A DNA stretch of 32,000 nt from Dickeya solani IPO 2222 (lineage in GTDB: Bacteria > Pseudomonadota > Gammaproteobacteria > Enterobacterales > Enterobacteriaceae), in NCBI RefSeq assembly GCF_001644705.1, contig NZ_CP015137.1, positions 4,620,001 through 4,652,000 of the forward strand, read 5' to 3'. Under the pieces are notes generated by a model. It did no database searches. It was not told the origin of the DNA and saw only the letters and a list, made by a program, of their open reading frames with translations. This document shows, piece after piece, positions 18,755-27,487 of this stretch (positions are counted from its first letter, which is position 1; each line of letters opens with the position of its first letter). The position numbers and the translations under genes are program-made.

Positions 18755-19924
18755 ATGCTCACTGATACGCAATGCCGCACTGCTAAGCCGAAAAAAACTC
18801 TATCGACTCAATGACTTCAACGATCTCTATCTCGAAGTGAAACCCAACGGCAAAAAGGCATGGCGCTATCGGTTTAAGCTCAACGGTAAATCCAGCATGT
18901 TCGCATTGGGTGAGTATCCAGCGGTAAAACTTGCCGAAGCGCGGGAGAAATGTGAGCAAGCGCGTAAGCAAGTCACTGAGGGAGTCAACCCGGCACAGGC
19001 TAGAGAAGATCCGCAAGGTTAACGATGCATCCAACACCTTTGAGCTCATCGCCAAAGAGTGGTTGCAGATGAAAGACTGGGCCGAAATCACCAAAACGCG
19101 CCGTCTTGATATGCTGGAGCGTGTGGTTTTCCCCGCTATCGGCAAACTTCCTATCAGAGAAATCACCCCGCATCACACTCTCAAAATACTTCAGGAAACC
19201 GCTAAACGCGGCGCACCGACCGTGGCCGCTGAAGCCCGCCGCACTATTTCATCGGTTTTTGAGCTGGCGGTGGCAACGCTCAGAGCAGACAGCGATCCTG
19301 TCTGGCCTGTACGTAAGGCACTTCCGGCAAACAAGACGCAGCACAAACAGGCATTGAATCCGCAGCAAGTCGGGAAACTATTAAGCTGTTTTGACAATAG
19401 TCGTGGCTCATACCAGGTTAACTATTGCATGTGGCTAATGTGATGAACACTGGCGCGGCCAGCCGAAGTCACCGAAGCGGAATGGGTAGAATTCGATCTC
19501 GATAATGCACTGTGGACCATTCCGGCAACACGAATGAAAGCCCGCAGAGAACACGTTATTCCCCTTCCCTCCCAAGCCGTCAGCATGCTCAGAACACTAC
19601 AGGGGTTAACCGGGCATCGACTGCACCTCTTTCCGGGCCGAGATAACCCACGCGGCCCGATGACATCGCACTCGCTGCGCCAGCTACTTAAAAGCCTCGG
19701 CTGGAATGGAACTTACAGCCCACATGCCACCCGAACTACAGGCAGCACACGTTTAAACGAGATGGGCTATCGGCCTGATGCTATCGAAGCTCAGCTTGCC
19801 CATGCTGATACCAATAATGTGAGGCGCACGTATAACCACGCGACTTATCTTGATGAACGCAAAGTTATTGCAGGATTGGGCAGATAAGCTTGATGGGTGG
19901 GTACAGGCCACTGTCGAGGTATAA
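18755..19924 (+). pseudogene. int: P4/CP4-57-type tyrosine integrase, inactivated by 3 frameshifts and a tandem in-frame stop
   Basis: The pieces read MLTDTQCRTAKPKK|LYRLNDFNDLYLEVKPNGKKAWRYRFKLNGKSSMFALGEYPAVKLAEAREKCEQARKQVTEGVNPAQA|LEKIRKVNDASNTFELIAKEW...YCMWLM**TLARPAEVTEAEWVEFDL...SPHATRTTGSTRLNEMGY...VRRTYNHATYLDERKV|DWADKLDGWVQATVEV*. The lesions are: an A7 tract at 18791-18797, a frameshift near 18995-19003, an in-frame TGA TGA at 19441-19446, and a roughly 2-bp deletion near 19865-19872. The HxxR and Y catalytic contexts are still recognisable. Confidence 0.85.
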
Positions 19925-19953
19925 TTTCAGCAGCGCGGGTACTGACTCGGCGT

Positions 19954-19959
19954 TATAAT
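19954..19959 (+). promoter_or_regulatory. Consensus -10 hexamer (TATAAT) upstream of the Fic gene
   Basis: A perfect TATAAT lies 40 nt upstream of ATG 19999, in the 75-bp gap after the reconstructed integrase stop. There is no good -35 element. Confidence 0.3.
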
Positions 19960-19998
19960 TTTGCTATTACCCATGTCTCACCAATTCAGGGTTTTTAC

Positions 19999-20616
19999 AT
20001 GAGCCGATACCATGTTTCCAGTAGTGAAGGTCAATATGAGAAAGACTCTGGTGAACAGGTTTTATCCAATAAATTGAGCATATCCGATTCTGATGAGATT
20101 GACGGTGCTGAGCTGGTACTTCTGGAACAACTTTATCATTCTGTTTTTGAAGAGCAGTTCCCGCTGGGGCAGATTACCGTAAATACGCTGAAAAGCTGGC
20201 ATCGTCGTTGGTTAGGTAACATCTACGAATGGGCGGGACATGAAAGGACGGTAAATATCAGCAAAGGTGGCTTTATGTTCGCCCCGTCTGCACAATTGCC
20301 AAAATTACTGCACGAATTTGACACTAAATACCTGGCCCGTTATACGCCCTGTGCCAGCATGAGCAAAGAGCAACTCATTGAAGCTATTGCCATAATCCAC
20401 GTAGAGCTGATCCTCATTCATCCCTTCAGAGAGGGAAACGGTCGCTTATCACGACTTTTAGCCGATGTGATGGCGGTTCAGGGAGGATACAAACCCTTGG
20501 ATTACCAAAGCTGGGAGCAGAATAAGACAGAATATATTGCGGCTATCCATGCTGGTATGGCAATGGATTATATGCCGATGAAGCACTGGGTGGGATTGGC
20601 GTTAAGTAATGATTAA
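19999..20616 (+). CDS. Fic/DOC-family protein (putative AMPylase / NMP- or phospho-transferase), 205 aa
   Basis: The canonical Fic active-site motif HPFREGNGRLSR is encoded at 20419-20454 (HxFx[D/E]GNGRxxR). I place the start at ATG 19999 (MSRYHVSSSEGQYEK...). The ORF-track GTG at 19897 would overlap the integrase 3' end. The G+C content is visibly lower than in the backbone. Confidence 0.85.
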   Translation: MSRYHVSSSEGQYEKDSGEQVLSNKLSISDSDEIDGAELVLLEQLYHSVFEEQFPLGQITVNTLKSWHRRWLGNIYEWAGHERTVNISKGGFMFAPSAQLPKLLHEFDTKYLARYTPCASMSKEQLIEAIAIIHVELILIHPFREGNGRLSRLLADVMAVQGGYKPLDYQSWEQNKTEYIAAIHAGMAMDYMPMKHWVGLALSND

Positions 20617-20875: not shown

Positions 20876-23800
20876 TTATGCATCCAGAGGATAAGCTCGC
20901 ATCACCGCTTCGATTCGCTCTCGGGCACTACTCGTAACACGTTTAAATCCGAACCCTTTCGCAATTTCGGCAGCTTTATCCTCGCCATGGACTTTATCCA
21001 CCATGGGCACAATCTCCTCATAAGCGATTTCATTCATAGAACGCATATCATCATCTGTCTCAGGGGAACGTGCTATATGCCAACCGTCACTTTGTTGCTG
21101 GGAAATCCAGACAAAATCTCCGTCAATTTTGTCTGCTTTGATAAAGTGATGTTTGTCGATTATCTCCAGCACTCGTGTCCTAATTAACCGCCCTGCTCGG
21201 CCGAAGCCATGGAGGCGAGCAATACGTTGTACCAGCAAGGAATCCAATATTGGAGCCTCCTGCTCAAGCGTATGCGTAACTAATTGGCGCAATGTGTCCT
21301 CATACTCATCGGCGTAGAAGTGTTCAGCATCAATCATTGATGTAAACGCAGAGAAATCAGTCTGTCTGTAGACAAAACGATCGCTAGCCTGAGCAACATC
21401 AGACGTGATGTCGTATTTGTGCGCTATTTTGCGCTCGTAGATGACTGACTCGTCATTGGCAGCAGCAACGGTGACCACCTCATCTGGAGGATCAGAAAGA
21501 ACATCGTTAATTTCCCCGTTGACTGACAATGAAGTCATCTCTTCTGCGTCACTCTTCGGCTCATCATCGCACTCAGTAGTATCAACTTCCCTGACGGCAT
21601 TTTTCTCGACAAGCTGACTTTCAAGTGCTCGTGATGCTTCCAACAACGCTTCTATCTCGGCATGAAGGCGTTCAAGTGAGCCTTGTTTATCAATCCACCA
21701 ATCAGTGGACCACACCCGCACAAGTTTCCAGCCAAGACCGAGCAGAACCGCACTACGAACCTTATCCCTATCTCTGGCTGTTGCAGCACTGTGATAGCTT
21801 GCGCCATCGCACTCCACCCCGACGAGATAATCTCCAGGATGATCAGGATGTACGATTCCTAGATCGATACGGAAACGTGACACACCGATTTGTGGTACGA
21901 CATTCCATCCTTTCTGGCGCAATCCATTAGCGACCGCTTCCTCAAAGGGAGATTCATATCCCCCCAGGGAGCCTCTAATCGCTTGTGCCAACGCGACCGG
22001 TCCTCGCTGAGCAAATTCAATGAAGTGTTTGAGGTCTTGCACCGCACGAGCGCTTGTGCGGTTGAGATCAATCAAAGATGGGTCGAACGACGTGAAGAGC
22101 AGCATCTCACACCTTGCACGCGTGATAGCTACATTCAAGCGGCGCCATCCCCCTTCTTTATTCAACGGACCAAAGTTCATCGACATGGTATTGGCATCTG
22201 CGGCGGTTGGCCCGTAGCAGATCCCCAGCATGATAAGATCACGCTCATCACCTTGGACAGTCTCTAAGTTTTTAACTATCACGGGTTCCGCTAAATCGTC
22301 CTGAAAATAAGCTTCAATAGAGGGATTCTGCTGTCGCGCTCTGTCTAGCAGGTCAGAAATAAGTCTCTGCTGATCGCTATTTAACGTAATAATGCCGATT
22401 GAGCGCCTCGACTTAATGAATTCAGGATCAGTCAAACGTTTAACGGTTTCAGCTACAATGGCTTCAGCTTCTGCCTGATTGTGTCGCCCCTTGCCTTTAG
22501 CATAAAGACCATCAATTTTACGCCACTCCACCATGCTCGATTTCGTTTGAGCAGCGGGAAATGTGATGAGGTTGCTGCCGTAATAGCGGTGGTTGGAGAA
22601 AGCAATCAAGCTTTCATGACGACTGCGGTAATGCCAGCTCAAGCTGTGGTTATAAATTCCCGCCGCCAGACATTCATCCAGAATGCTTTCCATATCTTCT
22701 TCTGTATCATCTTCCGCATCTGTCTCCCCTCGGCCAAAGAAGTTGGTAGGTGGCATCTGACGTGGATCGCCTGCAATCACCACCTGTTTCCCTCGGGCAA
22801 TGGACCCAACCGCATCCCATGGCGTAATCTGAGATGCTTCATCGAATATCACGAGATCAAACTGGGATTGATTGGCAGGAAGATATTGTGCTATCGATAA
22901 CGGACTCATTAGCATACAGGGAGCCAATGTTGACATGGCACTTCCCATTTCCGTCGCCAACTGGCGGATGGGTTTATGCCGCCGAGATTTTTGCAACTCG
23001 TGTTTTAATACACCATACCCCCCAATCTTACCCACATCGTTCTTGGCGGGAATATGTCCACACAGCTTCGCTCGGATGTAACGCACCGCCAATTGAGACA
23101 ATCGCTCATCCTGCTTACGGTATGCCTCAATATCACTCATATGCTCTGCGGGTACGAAATTACGCAAAAGCGGTTCGGCATCGATTACCCATGCAGCGAA
23201 CCAACGCGCGTAGGCGGTCTCAAAAGTATCAACAACCTGGCCTTCTGGAATTTCTTTTCTTGCCATGACTTCCGCCAGCGGTTGTAGGCCAATCACATTG
23301 GCTTCATCCCGCACACGGCACCAGTCGCACCACGATTTAAGCGCTGCTGGTTTGTTAACAATACCCACTGCGGTTTCACGCAACAGAGTGATCTCATTTT
23401 CATTAGATGGCTGATGGCCTAGCAGCGTGCTAAAACGCGTCGCCGTGTTGTCGAAATCAGTGATAGCAGATTTGAGGCGTGCCAAGCGAATGGCAAGATT
23501 TCCATCCTTGTCCAATAAGTCATTAGAATCGACAATCAGCGTGGAAACAGAAGCGCGAAGTTCTGCGAGATGCGACGAGGAAGTTGCCATTGCACTCATC
23601 TTCGTACGAATGAGCTCGGAGAGCGACATTGCCTGTGCAAGTCGCGTCAAATCACTATTTCGACTATCCCAACCTGGCATATCCTGTATATCGGCAGAGC
23701 ATCCCTCTAGTGCAGAGATAAGCTCTTTTATCTTTCTAAGCGTTATGAGATCGCGAACAACATCAGGGCTGCCTGATGCTCCGCCTTGCGTTGCTAAATC

Positions 23801-26794
23801 AGCAGTGACTTTCTTTTTCGCCATCGAGGCAAAGAACCAAAGCTTTTTCTCCGCCTGCTTCCAGTCATTTTCAATTTGTTCGAGATTAATACGGTTATAA
23901 AGTTCAGCGGTGTAAGTTACAGAAAGGTTTTTCTCCTCCGTTCGGAACGCGTCAACCAGTCCCATGGCACGCTGTGCTGTACTTATCTTCGTCGCCACGT
24001 TGGGAGAAAACATGAATCGGAGATCAACATTATGCGCCGTTAGCAATAACCCCACGAATTCAATTAATTTATTGACTTCACGTAGCCCAGAGCTAACCGC
24101 TGTCAAATGAGTGATATCCTGGACGTCGCGCAGCCCAGACTCTACATTATCAATGCTCTTGGGTATTTCATGCGCTACGGCGACCAGCCTTTCCTGCCAT
24201 CCGTTTGACCACTCCGTACGAGAGATGTAACCGAACACACCATCCAATTCTCTTGCTGTCCGGCTATTGAGGTCGAGTCGACGCGCAACATCACGAAATC
24301 GAGTCATCTCATCCCGATCATGGTGAGTGCCCGCTGGCCACTGCATTTTGGGCGTAGCCTCATCTGCATCACGAATGACTCGCCCTATCGCCTGATGAAC
24401 GGTAAGCCCATTTGGCCAGATCTTATGCAGGACGCTAACAACACCATTCAGCTTATCGCGCAAACGCTGCGCTTCCCGCCCTTCTGCCAACCACTCATCT
24501 GCTGAAAGGACATCCCTTGTGTCCCATGCCCGCTCAAGTTGCTTTAAGAAATCTACTTTTGAGGTTTTACTTGAATGAAGTTCAACGCAAAATTCACCCA
24601 ATCCCTTTTCCTCAAGACGACGGTACACCACGTCCAGCGCGGCTCTTTTTTCGGCAACAAACAAGACCCGCCGACCTAGCGCAAGATTATGTGCGATCAT
24701 ATTAGCGATAGTCTGGGATTTACCGGTTCCTGGTGGGCCATCAAGGACGAAGTTTTTTCCATTAGCGGAAGCAGCAATTGCAGCAATCTGCGAAGAGTCA
24801 GCAGGCAGAGGCAAAAATAGTTCCGTCGCTTTTACCTTACTGTCCAAATCCTTCGCGGACACAAACTCACCATCCGATGCCAGCATCTCACCGCCACTAC
24901 CGCGTTCAAGGAGACATTTTACTACTGCGTTTTGCATTAGCTGAGCAGACCGCTCGACCAGATCTTTCCACATCAGATATTTAGCAAATGAGAACGTACC
25001 AATGATCAGTTCGGGGACAACTTCGAAGCCGGGAATATCTCTTACGGCACGTCTTACCGTATTCCATATACCTGGAACGTCAATCCCGGACTCATCAGTG
25101 GGTAACTCACCGTCGAGTCCAGGAATTGATAATGAAAAATCATGGCGAAGCAATTCAAGTAGCGTGAGGTTAAAACGCGGTTCGTCCTCCAACATACGCA
25201 TCGTGACCCCGGATAAGGCACTTTTGCGCTCAAGCTGGATGGGCAGCAGAATCAATGGTGCTGAATAGGCTTGAGGTTCATCGGCACTTTTTTTCCATTT
25301 CAGAAAACCAATCGCCAGAAAGAGTGTATTTGATCCACCTTCGTCTATGTCGTTGCGCGCCTTTCGGTAGAGTTCAACGAGTAACGCCTCGAGTTTTTCC
25401 TTTACATCTGTCGCGAGTACTTCGCCTCGCGACAACACATCCCGAGCATACTCATCATACAGACTTTCACTATTCTGCTGCTGATAAAGATCTGCATCCC
25501 GCCCCGCTGATTCAAGGTTTGGCATTGGAACGATACGTATGCGTTTACCTTCCGCTAATTTATCCTCTAACGCAGCAGGGTCCAGGCAAAGTAATCTCAC
25601 ACTTTTCGATTTTGCTGGCAGATGGAGAAGCCTATTACGGGTCGTGAGATCAAGCAGTTTTCGTTGCCATACAGCGAGTTTCCCCGCGGGGGCGCTTGAC
25701 GTTTCGTTCGGTATGTCTACATCAAATGAAGGAAGATTCGGTGCTTCTTCTAACGCTTCGTTAATAGTTTCAGAGGCATCGTCTCGTCGCGTTACCGCCT
25801 CTTGTGGCTTCGTTTCTGCCAGCGCAAGTGGACGAATACGTTGCATCCTTGCTCTGCGAATATCCACAGCCACAATAAAATCATGATCTGTCAGTTGGCT
25901 TCTTGCGGTTTCAATGGCCTGAGTGAATGTAGGAACAATCGGTTTTGTTACCAGTGTCGTTTCAAAGACAACCATTTCCTGCAAATCAATCCGTTTGCGA
26001 ATTGCAGAAACATCTTCGGTAAGCAGATTAGAGAACTCCTGCGGTTGCAGCCATACCCCGACAAAAGCATGCCCTTCGGTAAAGACAACAACCGGGTTCA
26101 TTCCCAATTGCTCGATAGCAGCAGCAAAAAGTAATGCGCTGTCCAGGCAGGTGGCAACCATACCATCTAATATCGCTGAGGGGGTACGAATCTTCTGCCC
26201 TTGAGTTTCAAAACTGGCAGGGGGAAGCGCGTAGCTCAGTTTCAAGCTGCCTATTGCCGACCATAATGCAGAAGTAAGCTCCCAACTACGCCTCCTTGAT
26301 TCAGCCGTATATCCATCAAGTGAATCTTTTTTACCTGCTCGGCGTAATACATCTGAGGTTGTCTTTAGCACCTTATCGACGGCGATATCATTCGGCATAA
26401 CGAAAGCGGCGATTAATTCGGACATCCCGACGCCGCCCCACTCGTTTTTCGCCAAAACTTCGATGGGATAGCTCGCGGTAGCCAGCGTTGTATCATCACC
26501 AGCAAGTGTCAGAATCAATTCACCTCTGACACTTTCAGATAAAGAGAAAAGGTAATCCGCATTTAGACGCGCATCGCGATCTGAAATTTCCAATTCATCA
26601 CCGCGCGTTAGTCGGTCTAAATGCCACGTTTTAGGTTCAAGGAAAGAAGGTGACGACGTTAATGTGAGAGTCAGATCTTCAAAATCAGTTTCACTACCAT
26701 TATTTATTTTTAACTCACGTACAATGGGTACTGCATTCTGATGTGACGCGAAGCCAACCTTGCTGGTGAAGATCGCGGCCAATGTGATACTCAT
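20876..26794 (-). CDS. Giant (1,972-aa) multidomain SF1 Upf1-like helicase / PD-(D/E)xK-type endonuclease fusion with an N-terminal transglutaminase-like module (DUF4011...DUF3320-type architecture)
   Basis: This is one uninterrupted ORF. An AGGAG RBS lies 6 nt before ATG 26794; the ORF-track start is GTG 26797. Residue numbers below follow the 1,973-aa track translation. (1) aa 205-285: a Cys/His core, ATC217LDSALLFAAAIEQLGMNPVVVFTEGH243AFVGVWL...VVFE279TT. (2) aa 375-610: WQRKLLDLTTRNRLLHL and GGSNTLFLAIGFLKW, which are DUF4011-like hallmarks. (3) Walker A GPPGTGK693S (nt 24716-24739), motif Ia VLFVAEKRAALD, then a ~550-aa helical insert, motif II DLVIFDEASQ (aa 1314-1323), GDPRQMPP, YRSRHESLIAFSN, VQGDERD and RRLNVAITRAR. 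(4) aa 1612-1705: RID1645LGIV...YLVGVE1662CD1664GASYH...RDRDKVR...LGW.LVRVW, which is Vsr/DUF559-like. (5) An acidic linker followed by a C-terminal ~170-aa DUF3320-like tail. Confidence 0.92.
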   Translation of the reverse strand: MSITLAAIFTSKVGFASHQNAVPIVRELKINNGSETDFEDLTLTLTSSPSFLEPKTWHLDRLTRGDELEISDRDARLNADYLFSLSESVRGELILTLAGDDTTLATASYPIEVLAKNEWGGVGMSELIAAFVMPNDIAVDKVLKTTSDVLRRAGKKDSLDGYTAESRRRSWELTSALWSAIGSLKLSYALPPASFETQGQKIRTPSAILDGMVATCLDSALLFAAAIEQLGMNPVVVFTEGHAFVGVWLQPQEFSNLLTEDVSAIRKRIDLQEMVVFETTLVTKPIVPTFTQAIETARSQLTDHDFIVAVDIRRARMQRIRPLALAETKPQEAVTRRDDASETINEALEEAPNLPSFDVDIPNETSSAPAGKLAVWQRKLLDLTTRNRLLHLPAKSKSVRLLCLDPAALEDKLAEGKRIRIVPMPNLESAGRDADLYQQQNSESLYDEYARDVLSRGEVLATDVKEKLEALLVELYRKARNDIDEGGSNTLFLAIGFLKWKKSADEPQAYSAPLILLPIQLERKSALSGVTMRMLEDEPRFNLTLLELLRHDFSLSIPGLDGELPTDESGIDVPGIWNTVRRAVRDIPGFEVVPELIIGTFSFAKYLMWKDLVERSAQLMQNAVVKCLLERGSGGEMLASDGEFVSAKDLDSKVKATELFLPLPADSSQIAAIAASANGKNFVLDGPPGTGKSQTIANMIAHNLALGRRVLFVAEKRAALDVVYRRLEEKGLGEFCVELHSSKTSKVDFLKQLERAWDTRDVLSADEWLAEGREAQRLRDKLNGVVSVLHKIWPNGLTVHQAIGRVIRDADEATPKMQWPAGTHHDRDEMTRFRDVARRLDLNSRTARELDGVFGYISRTEWSNGWQERLVAVAHEIPKSIDNVESGLRDVQDITHLTAVSSGLREVNKLIEFVGLLLTAHNVDLRFMFSPNVATKISTAQRAMGLVDAFRTEEKNLSVTYTAELYNRINLEQIENDWKQAEKKLWFFASMAKKKVTADLATQGGASGSPDVVRDLITLRKIKELISALEGCSADIQDMPGWDSRNSDLTRLAQAMSLSELIRTKMSAMATSSSHLAELRASVSTLIVDSNDLLDKDGNLAIRLARLKSAITDFDNTATRFSTLLGHQPSNENEITLLRETAVGIVNKPAALKSWCDWCRVRDEANVIGLQPLAEVMARKEIPEGQVVDTFETAYARWFAAWVIDAEPLLRNFVPAEHMSDIEAYRKQDERLSQLAVRYIRAKLCGHIPAKNDVGKIGGYGVLKHELQKSRRHKPIRQLATEMGSAMSTLAPCMLMSPLSIAQYLPANQSQFDLVIFDEASQITPWDAVGSIARGKQVVIAGDPRQMPPTNFFGRGETDAEDDTEEDMESILDECLAAGIYNHSLSWHYRSRHESLIAFSNHRYYGSNLITFPAAQTKSSMVEWRKIDGLYAKGKGRHNQAEAEAIVAETVKRLTDPEFIKSRRSIGIITLNSDQQRLISDLLDRARQQNPSIEAYFQDDLAEPVIVKNLETVQGDERDLIMLGICYGPTAADANTMSMNFGPLNKEGGWRRLNVAITRARCEMLLFTSFDPSLIDLNRTSARAVQDLKHFIEFAQRGPVALAQAIRGSLGGYESPFEEAVANGLRQKGWNVVPQIGVSRFRIDLGIVHPDHPGDYLVGVECDGASYHSAATARDRDKVRSAVLLGLGWKLVRVWSTDWWIDKQGSLERLHAEIEALLEASRALESQLVEKNAVREVDTTECDDEPKSDAEEMTSLSVNGEINDVLSDPPDEVVTVAAANDESVIYERKIAHKYDITSDVAQASDRFVYRQTDFSAFTSMIDAEHFYADEYEDTLRQLVTHTLEQEAPILDSLLVQRIARLHGFGRAGRLIRTRVLEIIDKHHFIKADKIDGDFVWISQQQSDGWHIARSPETDDDMRSMNEIAYEEIVPMVDKVHGEDKAAEIAKGFGFKRVTSSARERIEAVMRAYPLDA

Positions 26795-26981
26795 CACAAT
26801 CTCCTATACATCTGTGTAGTCATAAGAACAGCGAAGGCCATTAACCCCCACTTAATAACATGAAGAAATAAAAAATGTTTTTATATGCGCTATACTTAGC
26901 ATAAGTTGCTAATGGTATATCAGAGTAGTTTCACTTAGAATGTCACAGTATTGCTATGATTTCACTCACTTTACTCGAAGT

Positions 26982-27020
26982 AAAATATCATAATATCACT
27001 CATGAATATTATGATGTTTT
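26982..27020. repeat. AT-rich 15-bp-arm palindrome in the non-coding region upstream of the giant gene
   Basis: aaaatatcataatat (26982-26996) - cactcatga - atattatgatgtttt (27006-27020), with 14 of 15 positions complementary. It lies about 190-225 bp upstream of the giant gene start. A second small palindrome, ataaaaa-tg-tttttat, lies at about 26868-26883. Confidence 0.5.
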
Positions 27021-27487
27021 ATCCTCATACAAATGTCTTAAATGGATAATTACCCTAGATTAGCAATAAAATAATCGCCTTCAGCAATTAAATACCAGCA
27101 CGATCAGGAAATAGATTTGTAACCCCCCTGAATTCTAGATTTTGTTTCTAAATAAACCCACTTTGACGTTTTTTGGTTTCTGGTAGAAAATCTACGATGG
27201 ATGACTTGGTTACTCAATGTTCCAGTCTTCTGACCTTCACAATGATGACCGGGGTTTGGAGGTTATTGTAAAGCAAGGCACATAGAAGACACAGCACTAA
27301 GCTTGCTTGGATTTGATCTCAAGCTAGAGATTCGTTCAATCCTTTGGATGCAGGAAATAATTCCATCTTACAGTATTACTTGCTCGAGAGCTCTCTCATG
27401 GCCGCTTCTCACGCAGAGTTTACAGCCAACGCGGCTAGGGCCCATCAGTAACTATGATGCCAACTTCAATACAAGTCGTTGCATTTG

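Follow-up and report, generated by a model that had tools for sequence, protein, structure and literature searches.

A probable ProA-family anti-phage protein with fused helicase and nuclease modules on an integrase islet of Dickeya solani

The window analyzed here is a 32,000-nucleotide stretch of the genome of Dickeya solani IPO 2222 (contig NZ_CP015137.1, positions 4,620,001 to 4,652,000 of the forward strand). A gene on its minus strand, proA, encodes a protein of 1,972 residues that combines a predicted transglutaminase-like Cys-His module, an Upf1-like superfamily 1B (SF1B) helicase, and a Vsr-type nuclease in one chain. We conclude that proA probably encodes a ProA-family anti-phage protein, which serves D. 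solani as a stand-alone single-polypeptide effector and is located on a now-immobile integrase islet beside ychF. The gene is an already catalogued bacterial immune gene and not a new kind of system, since it belongs to a named NCBIfam family, matches a candidate system of PADLOC, is a paralog of the tested defense gene hhe, and has an architecture that was published in 2013.

Identification of proA

The coding sequence of proA occupies the following positions of the window:
20876..26794, minus strand: proA coding sequence, 1,972 residues plus stop codon; alternative GTG start one codon upstream, at 26797

The open reading frame (ORF) listing of the window contains a single unbroken minus-strand frame at 20876..26797, which is 1973 residues long when counted from its GTG codon. 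The second codon of this ORF is an ATG at 26794, preceded at normal spacing by an AGGAG ribosome-binding site, which gives a protein of 1,972 residues. The initial annotation of the window, made from the sequence before the present searches, had described one ORF of 1,972 residues at 20876-26794 without stating its strand; the frame was borne out and lies on the minus strand. The residue numbers given there for K693, D1645, E1662, and C217 are each too high by one, and the correct numbers for the ATG start are K692, D1644, E1661, and C216.

The protein of the window is present in identical form on 42 D. solani contigs. One D. solani assembly contains the gene as fragments of 281 and 601 residues (locus tags HAT91_02349 and HAT91_02352), which suggests that the gene is inactivated in that strain or that the assembly is faulty. 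A scan for promoters and terminators upstream of the gene identified no convincing sigma-70 promoter, and since it returned fewer matches than shuffled sequence, it is uninformative. The AT-rich leader contains a near-perfect 16-nt inverted repeat, TAAAATATCATAATAT / ATATTATGATGTTTTA, with a 9-nt spacer (26981-27021), approximately 190-230 bp before the start codon of proA. The repeat could be an operator.

The protein matches the NCBIfam equivalog model NF058533, "anti-phage protein ProA" (release 20.0 of June 2026), with 2171.3 bits, above the model cut-off of 1500. The match extends over residues 15-1952 of the protein and positions 2-1903 of the 1903 in the profile. When the protein was cut into five pieces, each of them, including the N-terminal 370 residues and the tail, matched the model in colinear order. 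All modules of the window protein align with ProA, from the transglutaminase-like domain to the DUF3320 tail, and no structural difference separates the two. Homologs of about 1,950 residues with 58-70% identity are encoded in Pseudomonas, Xenorhabdus, Brenneria, Serratia, and Salmonella, and on Klebsiella plasmids.

A PADLOC search of the protein at E<=0.01, a check proposed in the initial annotation, gave matches to the candidate system PDC-S37 (1191 bits) and to Hhe (577 bits), and the neighboring Fic gene matched PDC-S04. The PDC-S37 match, reported without a curated cut-off, covers residues 372-1966 of the protein and positions 9-1531 of the 1550-position profile, which leaves the N-terminal 370 residues uncovered. 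No paper that mentions PDC-S37 was found in the literature searched. The initial annotation had presented the protein as uncharacterized, as unlike any defense system that could be named, and as a member of a DUF4011/DUF3320 family with no experimentally assigned function. These three statements do not hold: the protein passes the ProA equivalog and matches PDC-S37, its architecture was described in 2013 (PMC3710099), and its paralog Hhe, a DUF4011 protein, is active against phages in Escherichia coli.

Domain architecture of the window protein

The protein is composed of an N-terminal beta-sandwich and a transglutaminase-like domain, a DUF4011 region, a helicase core interrupted by a long insertion, a nuclease domain, an acidic linker, and a DUF3320 tail (all on the minus strand):
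26456..26794, minus strand: N-terminal beta-sandwich, residues 1-113; AlphaFold2 model, strands span residues 3-113
25835..26437, minus strand: transglutaminase-like (papain-like) Cys-His domain, residues ~120-320, with C216, H242, E278, and D311; AlphaFold2 sub-model
25148..25660, minus strand: DUF4011 region, residues 379-549; Pfam 1.6e-43, aligns with the extreme N-terminus of Hhe
24455..24817, minus strand: N-terminal part of helicase domain RecA1, Walker A motif GPPGTGKS at residues 686-693, with K692; Pfam AAA_19/AAA_30/AAA_11
23150..24454, minus strand: insertion within the helicase core, ~435-455 residues, at residues ~780-1215 (760-1215 for the ~455-residue extent); predicted helical or coiled-coil
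22085..22897, minus strand: helicase motifs II-VI, residues 1300-1570; Pfam AAA_11 and AAA_12, PDB matches Sen1, Upf1, and DNA2
21653..21946, minus strand: Vsr-type endonuclease (MTES_1575/DUF559), residues 1617-1714, with D1644, E1661, and D1663; Pfam 1.2e-34
21365..21652, minus strand: acidic linker, residues ~1715-1810; 26 D/E in residues 1701-1800, conservation 0.10-0.28
20879..21319, minus strand: C-terminal DUF3320 tail, residues 1826-1972; Pfam DUF3320 2.5e-12 at residues 1826-1872

The DUF4011, SF1B helicase, Vsr/DUF559-like nuclease, and DUF3320 modules proposed in the initial annotation are supported by strong Pfam matches, and the motifs quoted there are all present at the expected places. 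Among the Pfam families it had anticipated, DUF4011, AAA_11, AAA_12, the MTES_1575 nuclease, and DUF3320 were recovered; Transglut_core was not detected in the window protein at E<=0.1. The five modules that it named are all represented in the chain, the transglutaminase-like one as a predicted fold, and two further parts had been missed, the beta-sandwich of residues 1-113 and the ~455-residue insertion in the helicase.

The helicase core is split in sequence. Pfam AAA_11 matches in two segments, one on the Walker A side (residues ~667-730) and the other around motif II (1307-1350), and AAA_12 covers residues 1370-1567 (5e-16). Residues 664-751 match Upf1, IGHMBP2, and Nam7 in the PDB search. 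The segment 1300-1570 contains the motifs DEASQ (1318-1322), GDPRQMPP, YRSRHESL, VQGDERD, and RRLNVAITRAR, the motif residues of which are invariant. The helicase is assigned to the Upf1-like SF1B class, because its sequence has no solved relatives other than Sen1, Upf1, IGHMBP2, Nam7, and DNA2.

The insertion that separates Walker A from motif II has a near-constant length, mostly 440-466 residues in 51 homologs. No other folded part of the protein is less conserved: its mean identity to the query is 0.20-0.33, compared with 0.6-0.77 in the enzymatic cores. Insertions of 36 homologs matched no recurrent Pfam family at E<=5 and gave no HEPN signal, and a profile of the insertion matched nothing but coiled coils in the PDB. 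A HEPN domain of the kind known from MTES_1575-type proteins was ruled out for the middle insertion by these Pfam and PDB profile searches.

The nuclease is followed by the acidic linker and the DUF3320 tail, which according to PMC3710099 consists of two winged-helix (wHTH, winged helix-turn-helix) domains. Across 52 sequences from several phyla, which span 37-100% identity, residues C216, H242, E278, D311, K692, D1318, E1319, D1644, E1661, and D1663 do not vary. Thus the three predicted enzymatic modules, the transglutaminase-like Cys-His domain, the SF1B ATPase/helicase, and the Vsr-type nuclease, all retain invariant residues at their putative catalytic positions. The Pfam scan of the window protein detected no PLD domain.

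N-terminal beta-sandwich and transglutaminase-like module

The AlphaFold2 model of residues 1-370, calculated from 62 homologs, has a predicted local distance difference test (pLDDT) score of 94.2 and a predicted template modeling (pTM) score of 0.91, and contains a beta-sandwich followed by an alpha/beta domain. A Foldseek search with this model returned TG2/FXIII, pilus chaperones, and arrestin. The alignments extend over just ~115-125 columns, and Ig-like folds are among the co-matches, from which we infer that the matches reflect the beta-sandwich and not the transglutaminase-like core. Because the sandwich appeared to dominate the search, residues 115-330 were modeled separately. The top Foldseek matches of this sub-model (pLDDT 93.7) are nearly all of transglutaminase fold, although weak, with E-values of 3e-3 to 0.1 and TM-scores of 0.3-0.4. 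They include PNGase, the pseudomurein endoisopeptidases PeiP and PeiW, CPR-C4 protease, the TGD of Rad4/XPC, LapG, and TglA. Further matches are two putative cysteine proteases, menin, and arylamine N-acetyltransferases.

Within the family, sub-threshold Pfam matches to DUF553, "Transglutaminase-like domain", occur at the region of the cysteine in 30 of the 62 sequences, and matches to Transglut_core in six. In the AlphaFold2 model, C216 opens the helix 216-229 and H242 opens the strand 242-248, as in the transglutaminase fold. The Foldseek list, the sub-threshold DUF553 matches, the placement of C216 and H242, and the invariance of these residues together led us to accept, with moderate confidence, that the N-terminal module has a transglutaminase-like fold. 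The Cys-His core read by eye in the initial annotation therefore stands as a predicted fold with an invariant C216/H242 pair, and falls short of a match at the Pfam threshold. The module may be catalytic, judging from its conserved residues.

Comparison with Hhe and other helicase-nuclease systems

A tested relative of the window protein is Hhe. The two proteins have in common DUF4011, an Upf1-like SF1B helicase that is split and contains a large insertion, and a Vsr-type nuclease of the MTES_1575 family. Hhe is likewise a single chain, of ~1,900 residues, and constitutes a single-gene system on plasmids and islands. The window protein was aligned directly with a PGAP-annotated hhe product from a Klebsiella pneumoniae IncF plasmid. 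The two are 32-36% identical in the regions of DUF4011, Walker A, motifs II-VI, and the nuclease domain. Hhe begins at DUF4011, however, and lacks both the ~370-residue beta-sandwich and transglutaminase-like module and a DUF3320 match. Its middle insertion is longer and unrelated, with ~485 residues unaligned, compared with ~180 in the window protein. The NCBIfam model of Hhe, NF042953, matches the window protein in two stretches with 822.9 bits, which is below the cut-off of 2000, and the protein is therefore not Hhe. The N-terminal module and the tail of the window protein are matched by the ProA model and not by that of Hhe. Based on the direct alignment, ProA can be described as an Hhe-like core extended by an N-terminal beta-sandwich/transglutaminase-like module and a winged-helix tail.

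According to a preprint, Hhe, a DUF4011 protein, shields E. coli from phages lambda, T3, T7, and PhiV-1 (bioRxiv 10.1101/2022.06.16.496414, citing Gao et al. 2020). The Vsr-domain mutant E1731A of Hhe lost its weak anti-T7 activity (bioRxiv 10.1101/2022.06.16.496414). The ECDG motif of the nuclease in the window protein aligns with an ECDG of Hhe, and the mutated glutamate probably corresponds to E1661. A second preprint describes a phage gene that counteracts hhe (bioRxiv 10.1101/2024.04.14.589459).

The module order of the window protein is the same as that of the giant proteins, such as MTES_1575, described computationally by Anantharaman et al. 2013 (PMC3710099), in which a transglutaminase-like peptidase, an SF1 helicase, and a Vsr restriction endonuclease are joined to two wHTH domains "overlapping DUF3320". 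These authors proposed that the proteins restrict DNA independently of modification, that the wHTH domains recognize invading DNA, and that the transglutaminase domain may cleave protein as a further line of defense (PMC3710099). Actinobacterial MTES_1575-type proteins carry an additional N-terminal HEPN RNase, whereas Pfam gives no HEPN signal in the window protein.

The type II Mokosh protein MkoC, Nhi, and Dna2 resemble the window protein in that an Upf1-like SF1B motor is on the same chain as, or works with, a nuclease, but differ from it in nuclease fold and domain order. Type II Mokosh was rejected as an identity of the protein: MkoA (91 bits) and MkoC (79 bits, on residues 1385-1570 of the window protein) match the helicase region only, and the PLD domain is missing. 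Nhi was rejected as well, since no Nhi model is among the PADLOC matches at E<=0.01. In this respect the initial annotation, which had set the protein apart from both systems, was right.

Distribution and mobility of relatives

Relatives of the protein are widespread. The first search returned more than 3,700 homologs, and a relative is present in at least 591 species representatives, which belong to the Alpha-, Beta-, and Gammaproteobacteria, Verrucomicrobia, Planctomycetes, Acidobacteria, Actinobacteria, and Gemmatimonadota. The N-terminal module, searched as a profile, matches 6,594 clusters at 50% identity. Among the matches listed at the top, which are full-length proteins of ~1,700-2,400 residues, the module is almost always positioned at or near the N-terminus. 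Copies with at least 90% identity are present in Pectobacterium cacticida and Brenneria populi.

Full-length homologs are encoded on 73 plasmid records, many of them conjugative. On a Klebsiella variicola plasmid, the homolog is flanked by IS110, IS1, and an AbiJ-NTD4 gene. Phage genomes are essentially devoid of homologs, apart from one fragmentary record. The gene neighborhoods were compared in 80 loci returned by a genome scan. The close chromosomal homologs have mutually unrelated neighbors, among them mutS, peptidases, a sigma factor, a major facilitator superfamily transporter, and IS110, which indicates that the close relatives are single-gene systems at variable sites. Clustering of the neighbors revealed no conserved partner gene above 55% identity, and no modification enzyme. 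The gene moves between chromosomal sites and conjugative plasmids. The initial annotation had named core-genome homologs with conserved synteny as an observation that would speak against a defense role; the close relatives are found at unrelated sites and on plasmids.

Two other arrangements were observed in the scan. In approximately 16 of the 80 loci, mostly alphaproteobacterial and with ~40% identity to the window protein, the gene is followed by a calcineurin-like (SbcD-like) phosphoesterase and then by an SbcC/SMC-like ATPase of ~940 residues. Loci of this type include L031:15880-19682, L032, L038, L040, L045, L064, and L070. The ATPase weakly resembles LmuB and mad3, and the combination of a ProA-like protein, phosphoesterase, and SMC-like ATPase may constitute a three-gene form of the system. 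In a gammaproteobacterial metagenome-assembled genome (L023:4946-8218, minus strand), a helicase-nuclease of 1,091 residues (AAA_11, AAA_12, MTES_1575/DUF559) is encoded ~2 kb upstream of the ProA homolog.

Proposed function and alternative explanations

Upf1-like SF1B motors such as Upf1, Sen1, and Dna2 translocate with 5'->3' polarity along single-stranded nucleic acid, domains of the Vsr/DUF559 type act as DNA endonucleases, and wHTH domains bind DNA. We propose that the winged-helix tail and DUF4011 of ProA would engage nucleic acid, along which the SF1B motor would translocate with ATP, acting on invading DNA or on replication intermediates. The fused Vsr-type nuclease would nick or cut the invading DNA without a modification partner. 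The most likely mode of action would thus be ATP-driven translocation coupled to nicking or cleavage, which is supported by the dependence of Hhe defense on the Vsr-domain glutamate. The helical insertion and the beta-sandwich/transglutaminase-like module may control the licensing of the nuclease. We speculate that licensing might occur by sensing, or by proteolytic processing of a phage protein or a self protein.

It is possible, if rather doubtful, that the Cys-His module functions as a third enzyme, whether peptidase, deamidase, or cross-linker, which senses or attacks a phage protein and licenses the helicase-nuclease. In that case, ProA would unite three enzymes in a single immune chain and link sensing at the protein level to the destruction of DNA, a logic not shared by Hhe, which lacks the module. 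Such a role is not addressed in the open literature searched or in the PDB, nor did the open-access sources yield a mechanism for ProA or Hhe. The strictly conserved Cys-His module sets ProA apart from Hhe.

Several points weigh against the assignment of proA as an anti-phage gene. The anti-phage function of the Dickeya protein is ascribed by family membership, and the label itself rests on the curated name of the model, because full-text literature searches, the coverage of which probably omits the source, found no publication in which this family is called ProA. PDC-S37 and PDC-S04 are only computational candidates and not validated systems. PDB searches found no relative of ProA or Hhe with a solved structure, so that the target of the nuclease, whether DNA or RNA and whether of phage or of self, and the polarity of the helicase are deduced from knowledge of the family. 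The SbcC/SbcD-like synteny of the divergent alphaproteobacterial clade could fit a role in DNA repair too. Finally, the large DUF4011 gene PA14_RS11765, which may be ProA, Hhe, or another paralog, is reported to be core in every Pseudomonas aeruginosa isolate (PMC10250203), where it forms the fixed right flank of the core defense hotspot cDHS1 (PMC10250203).

The last two observations, together with the presence of DNA2 among the nearest solved relatives, are what would be expected of a housekeeping helicase-nuclease of DNA repair or recombination, similar to Dna2 or AddAB, that is located in the islet by chance. We regard this as quite improbable, since the close relatives lack conserved synteny, the gene is found on plasmids and on an integrase islet, near-identical copies occur across genus boundaries, and the SMC-like partner itself resembles the defense proteins LmuB and mad3. 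At the DNA level, 5,426 complete E. coli genomes likewise gave no match, in a search that is insensitive at ~59% protein identity. The plasmid carriage would suit a protein that mainly restricts plasmids and other mobile elements, as a DdmDE- or Wadjet-like helicase-nuclease with a secondary effect on phages, or one that serves inter-element competition or addiction. Homologs are frequent on large Klebsiella and Raoultella plasmids of the conjugative type and on megaplasmids of rhizobia, they are missing from phage genomes with the exception of the one fragmentary record, and the lack of a modification partner means that the protein may target features of the replicon, not sequence or methylation. 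Nevertheless, the curated name of the family is explicitly anti-phage, the sister family Hhe acts against lambda, T3, T7, and PhiV-1, and plasmid carriage is normal among phage-defense genes; a mainly anti-plasmid function is therefore unlikely. That proA is a functionless relic in a decaying islet, no longer expressed or active, is very improbable. The integrase is frameshifted, the distal end of the islet has been cut by an insertion sequence (IS), no convincing sigma-70 promoter precedes the gene, and one D. solani assembly has it in fragments of 601 and 281 residues. Against these signs of decay, the 5.9-kb frame is unbroken with every catalytic residue intact, an identical protein is encoded on 42 contigs, AGGAG precedes the ATG, and the simple promoter scan is uninformative either way.

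We therefore retain the reading of proA as a probable ProA-family anti-phage gene. D. solani is a potato pathogen against which phage biocontrol is pursued, and proA, as a defense gene of this species, may limit the host range of phages.

Islet surrounding proA

The gene is located in a low-G+C islet of ~9 kb. The G+C content is 44-50% at ~20-28 kb of the window, compared with 54-60% in the core flank on the side of pth and ychF. From left to right past pth and ychF, the islet contains pieces of an integrase, a Fic gene, proA, ~1 kb of AT-rich DNA, and the remnant of an IS3 element. The features next to proA are:
18755..19921, plus strand: P4-type tyrosine integrase pseudogene beside ychF; Pfam Phage_int_M and Phage_integrase on fragments
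19897..20616, plus strand: Fic-domain gene, convergent with proA; Pfam Fic 2.5e-19, PADLOC PDC-S04 324 bits over the full length, SoFic 53 bits
27845..28530, plus strand: truncated IS3-family element; HTH_21, HTH_Tnp_1 on an 88-residue ORF, no catalytic core

The low G+C content, the frameshifted integrase, and the IS3 remnant agree with the earlier view of proA as defense cargo on a decayed integrative island. A search of the islet ends revealed no tRNA, no Rfam match, and no convincing att site, and the short repeats there are at chance level only. The Fic gene matches PDC-S04, and the islet thus carries two candidate defense genes. A role of the Fic protein as a partner of ProA was rejected, since the two genes are neighbors only in the islet of Dickeya and in a sister islet, and none of the 80 loci of the genome scan has a Fic gene next to the ProA homolog.

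The sister islet is on the related metagenome contig L083. The integrase of the window has at least three frameshifts and is recovered by tblastn as four pieces in frames 2, 3, 1, and 2, which are 91% identical to an intact integrase of 393 residues at the same site of L083. The DNA homology between the two islets ends at ~27768. Beyond this point, the IS3 element replaces the distal part of the islet, where L083 has three small genes of unknown function that encode proteins of 284, 56, and 88 residues.

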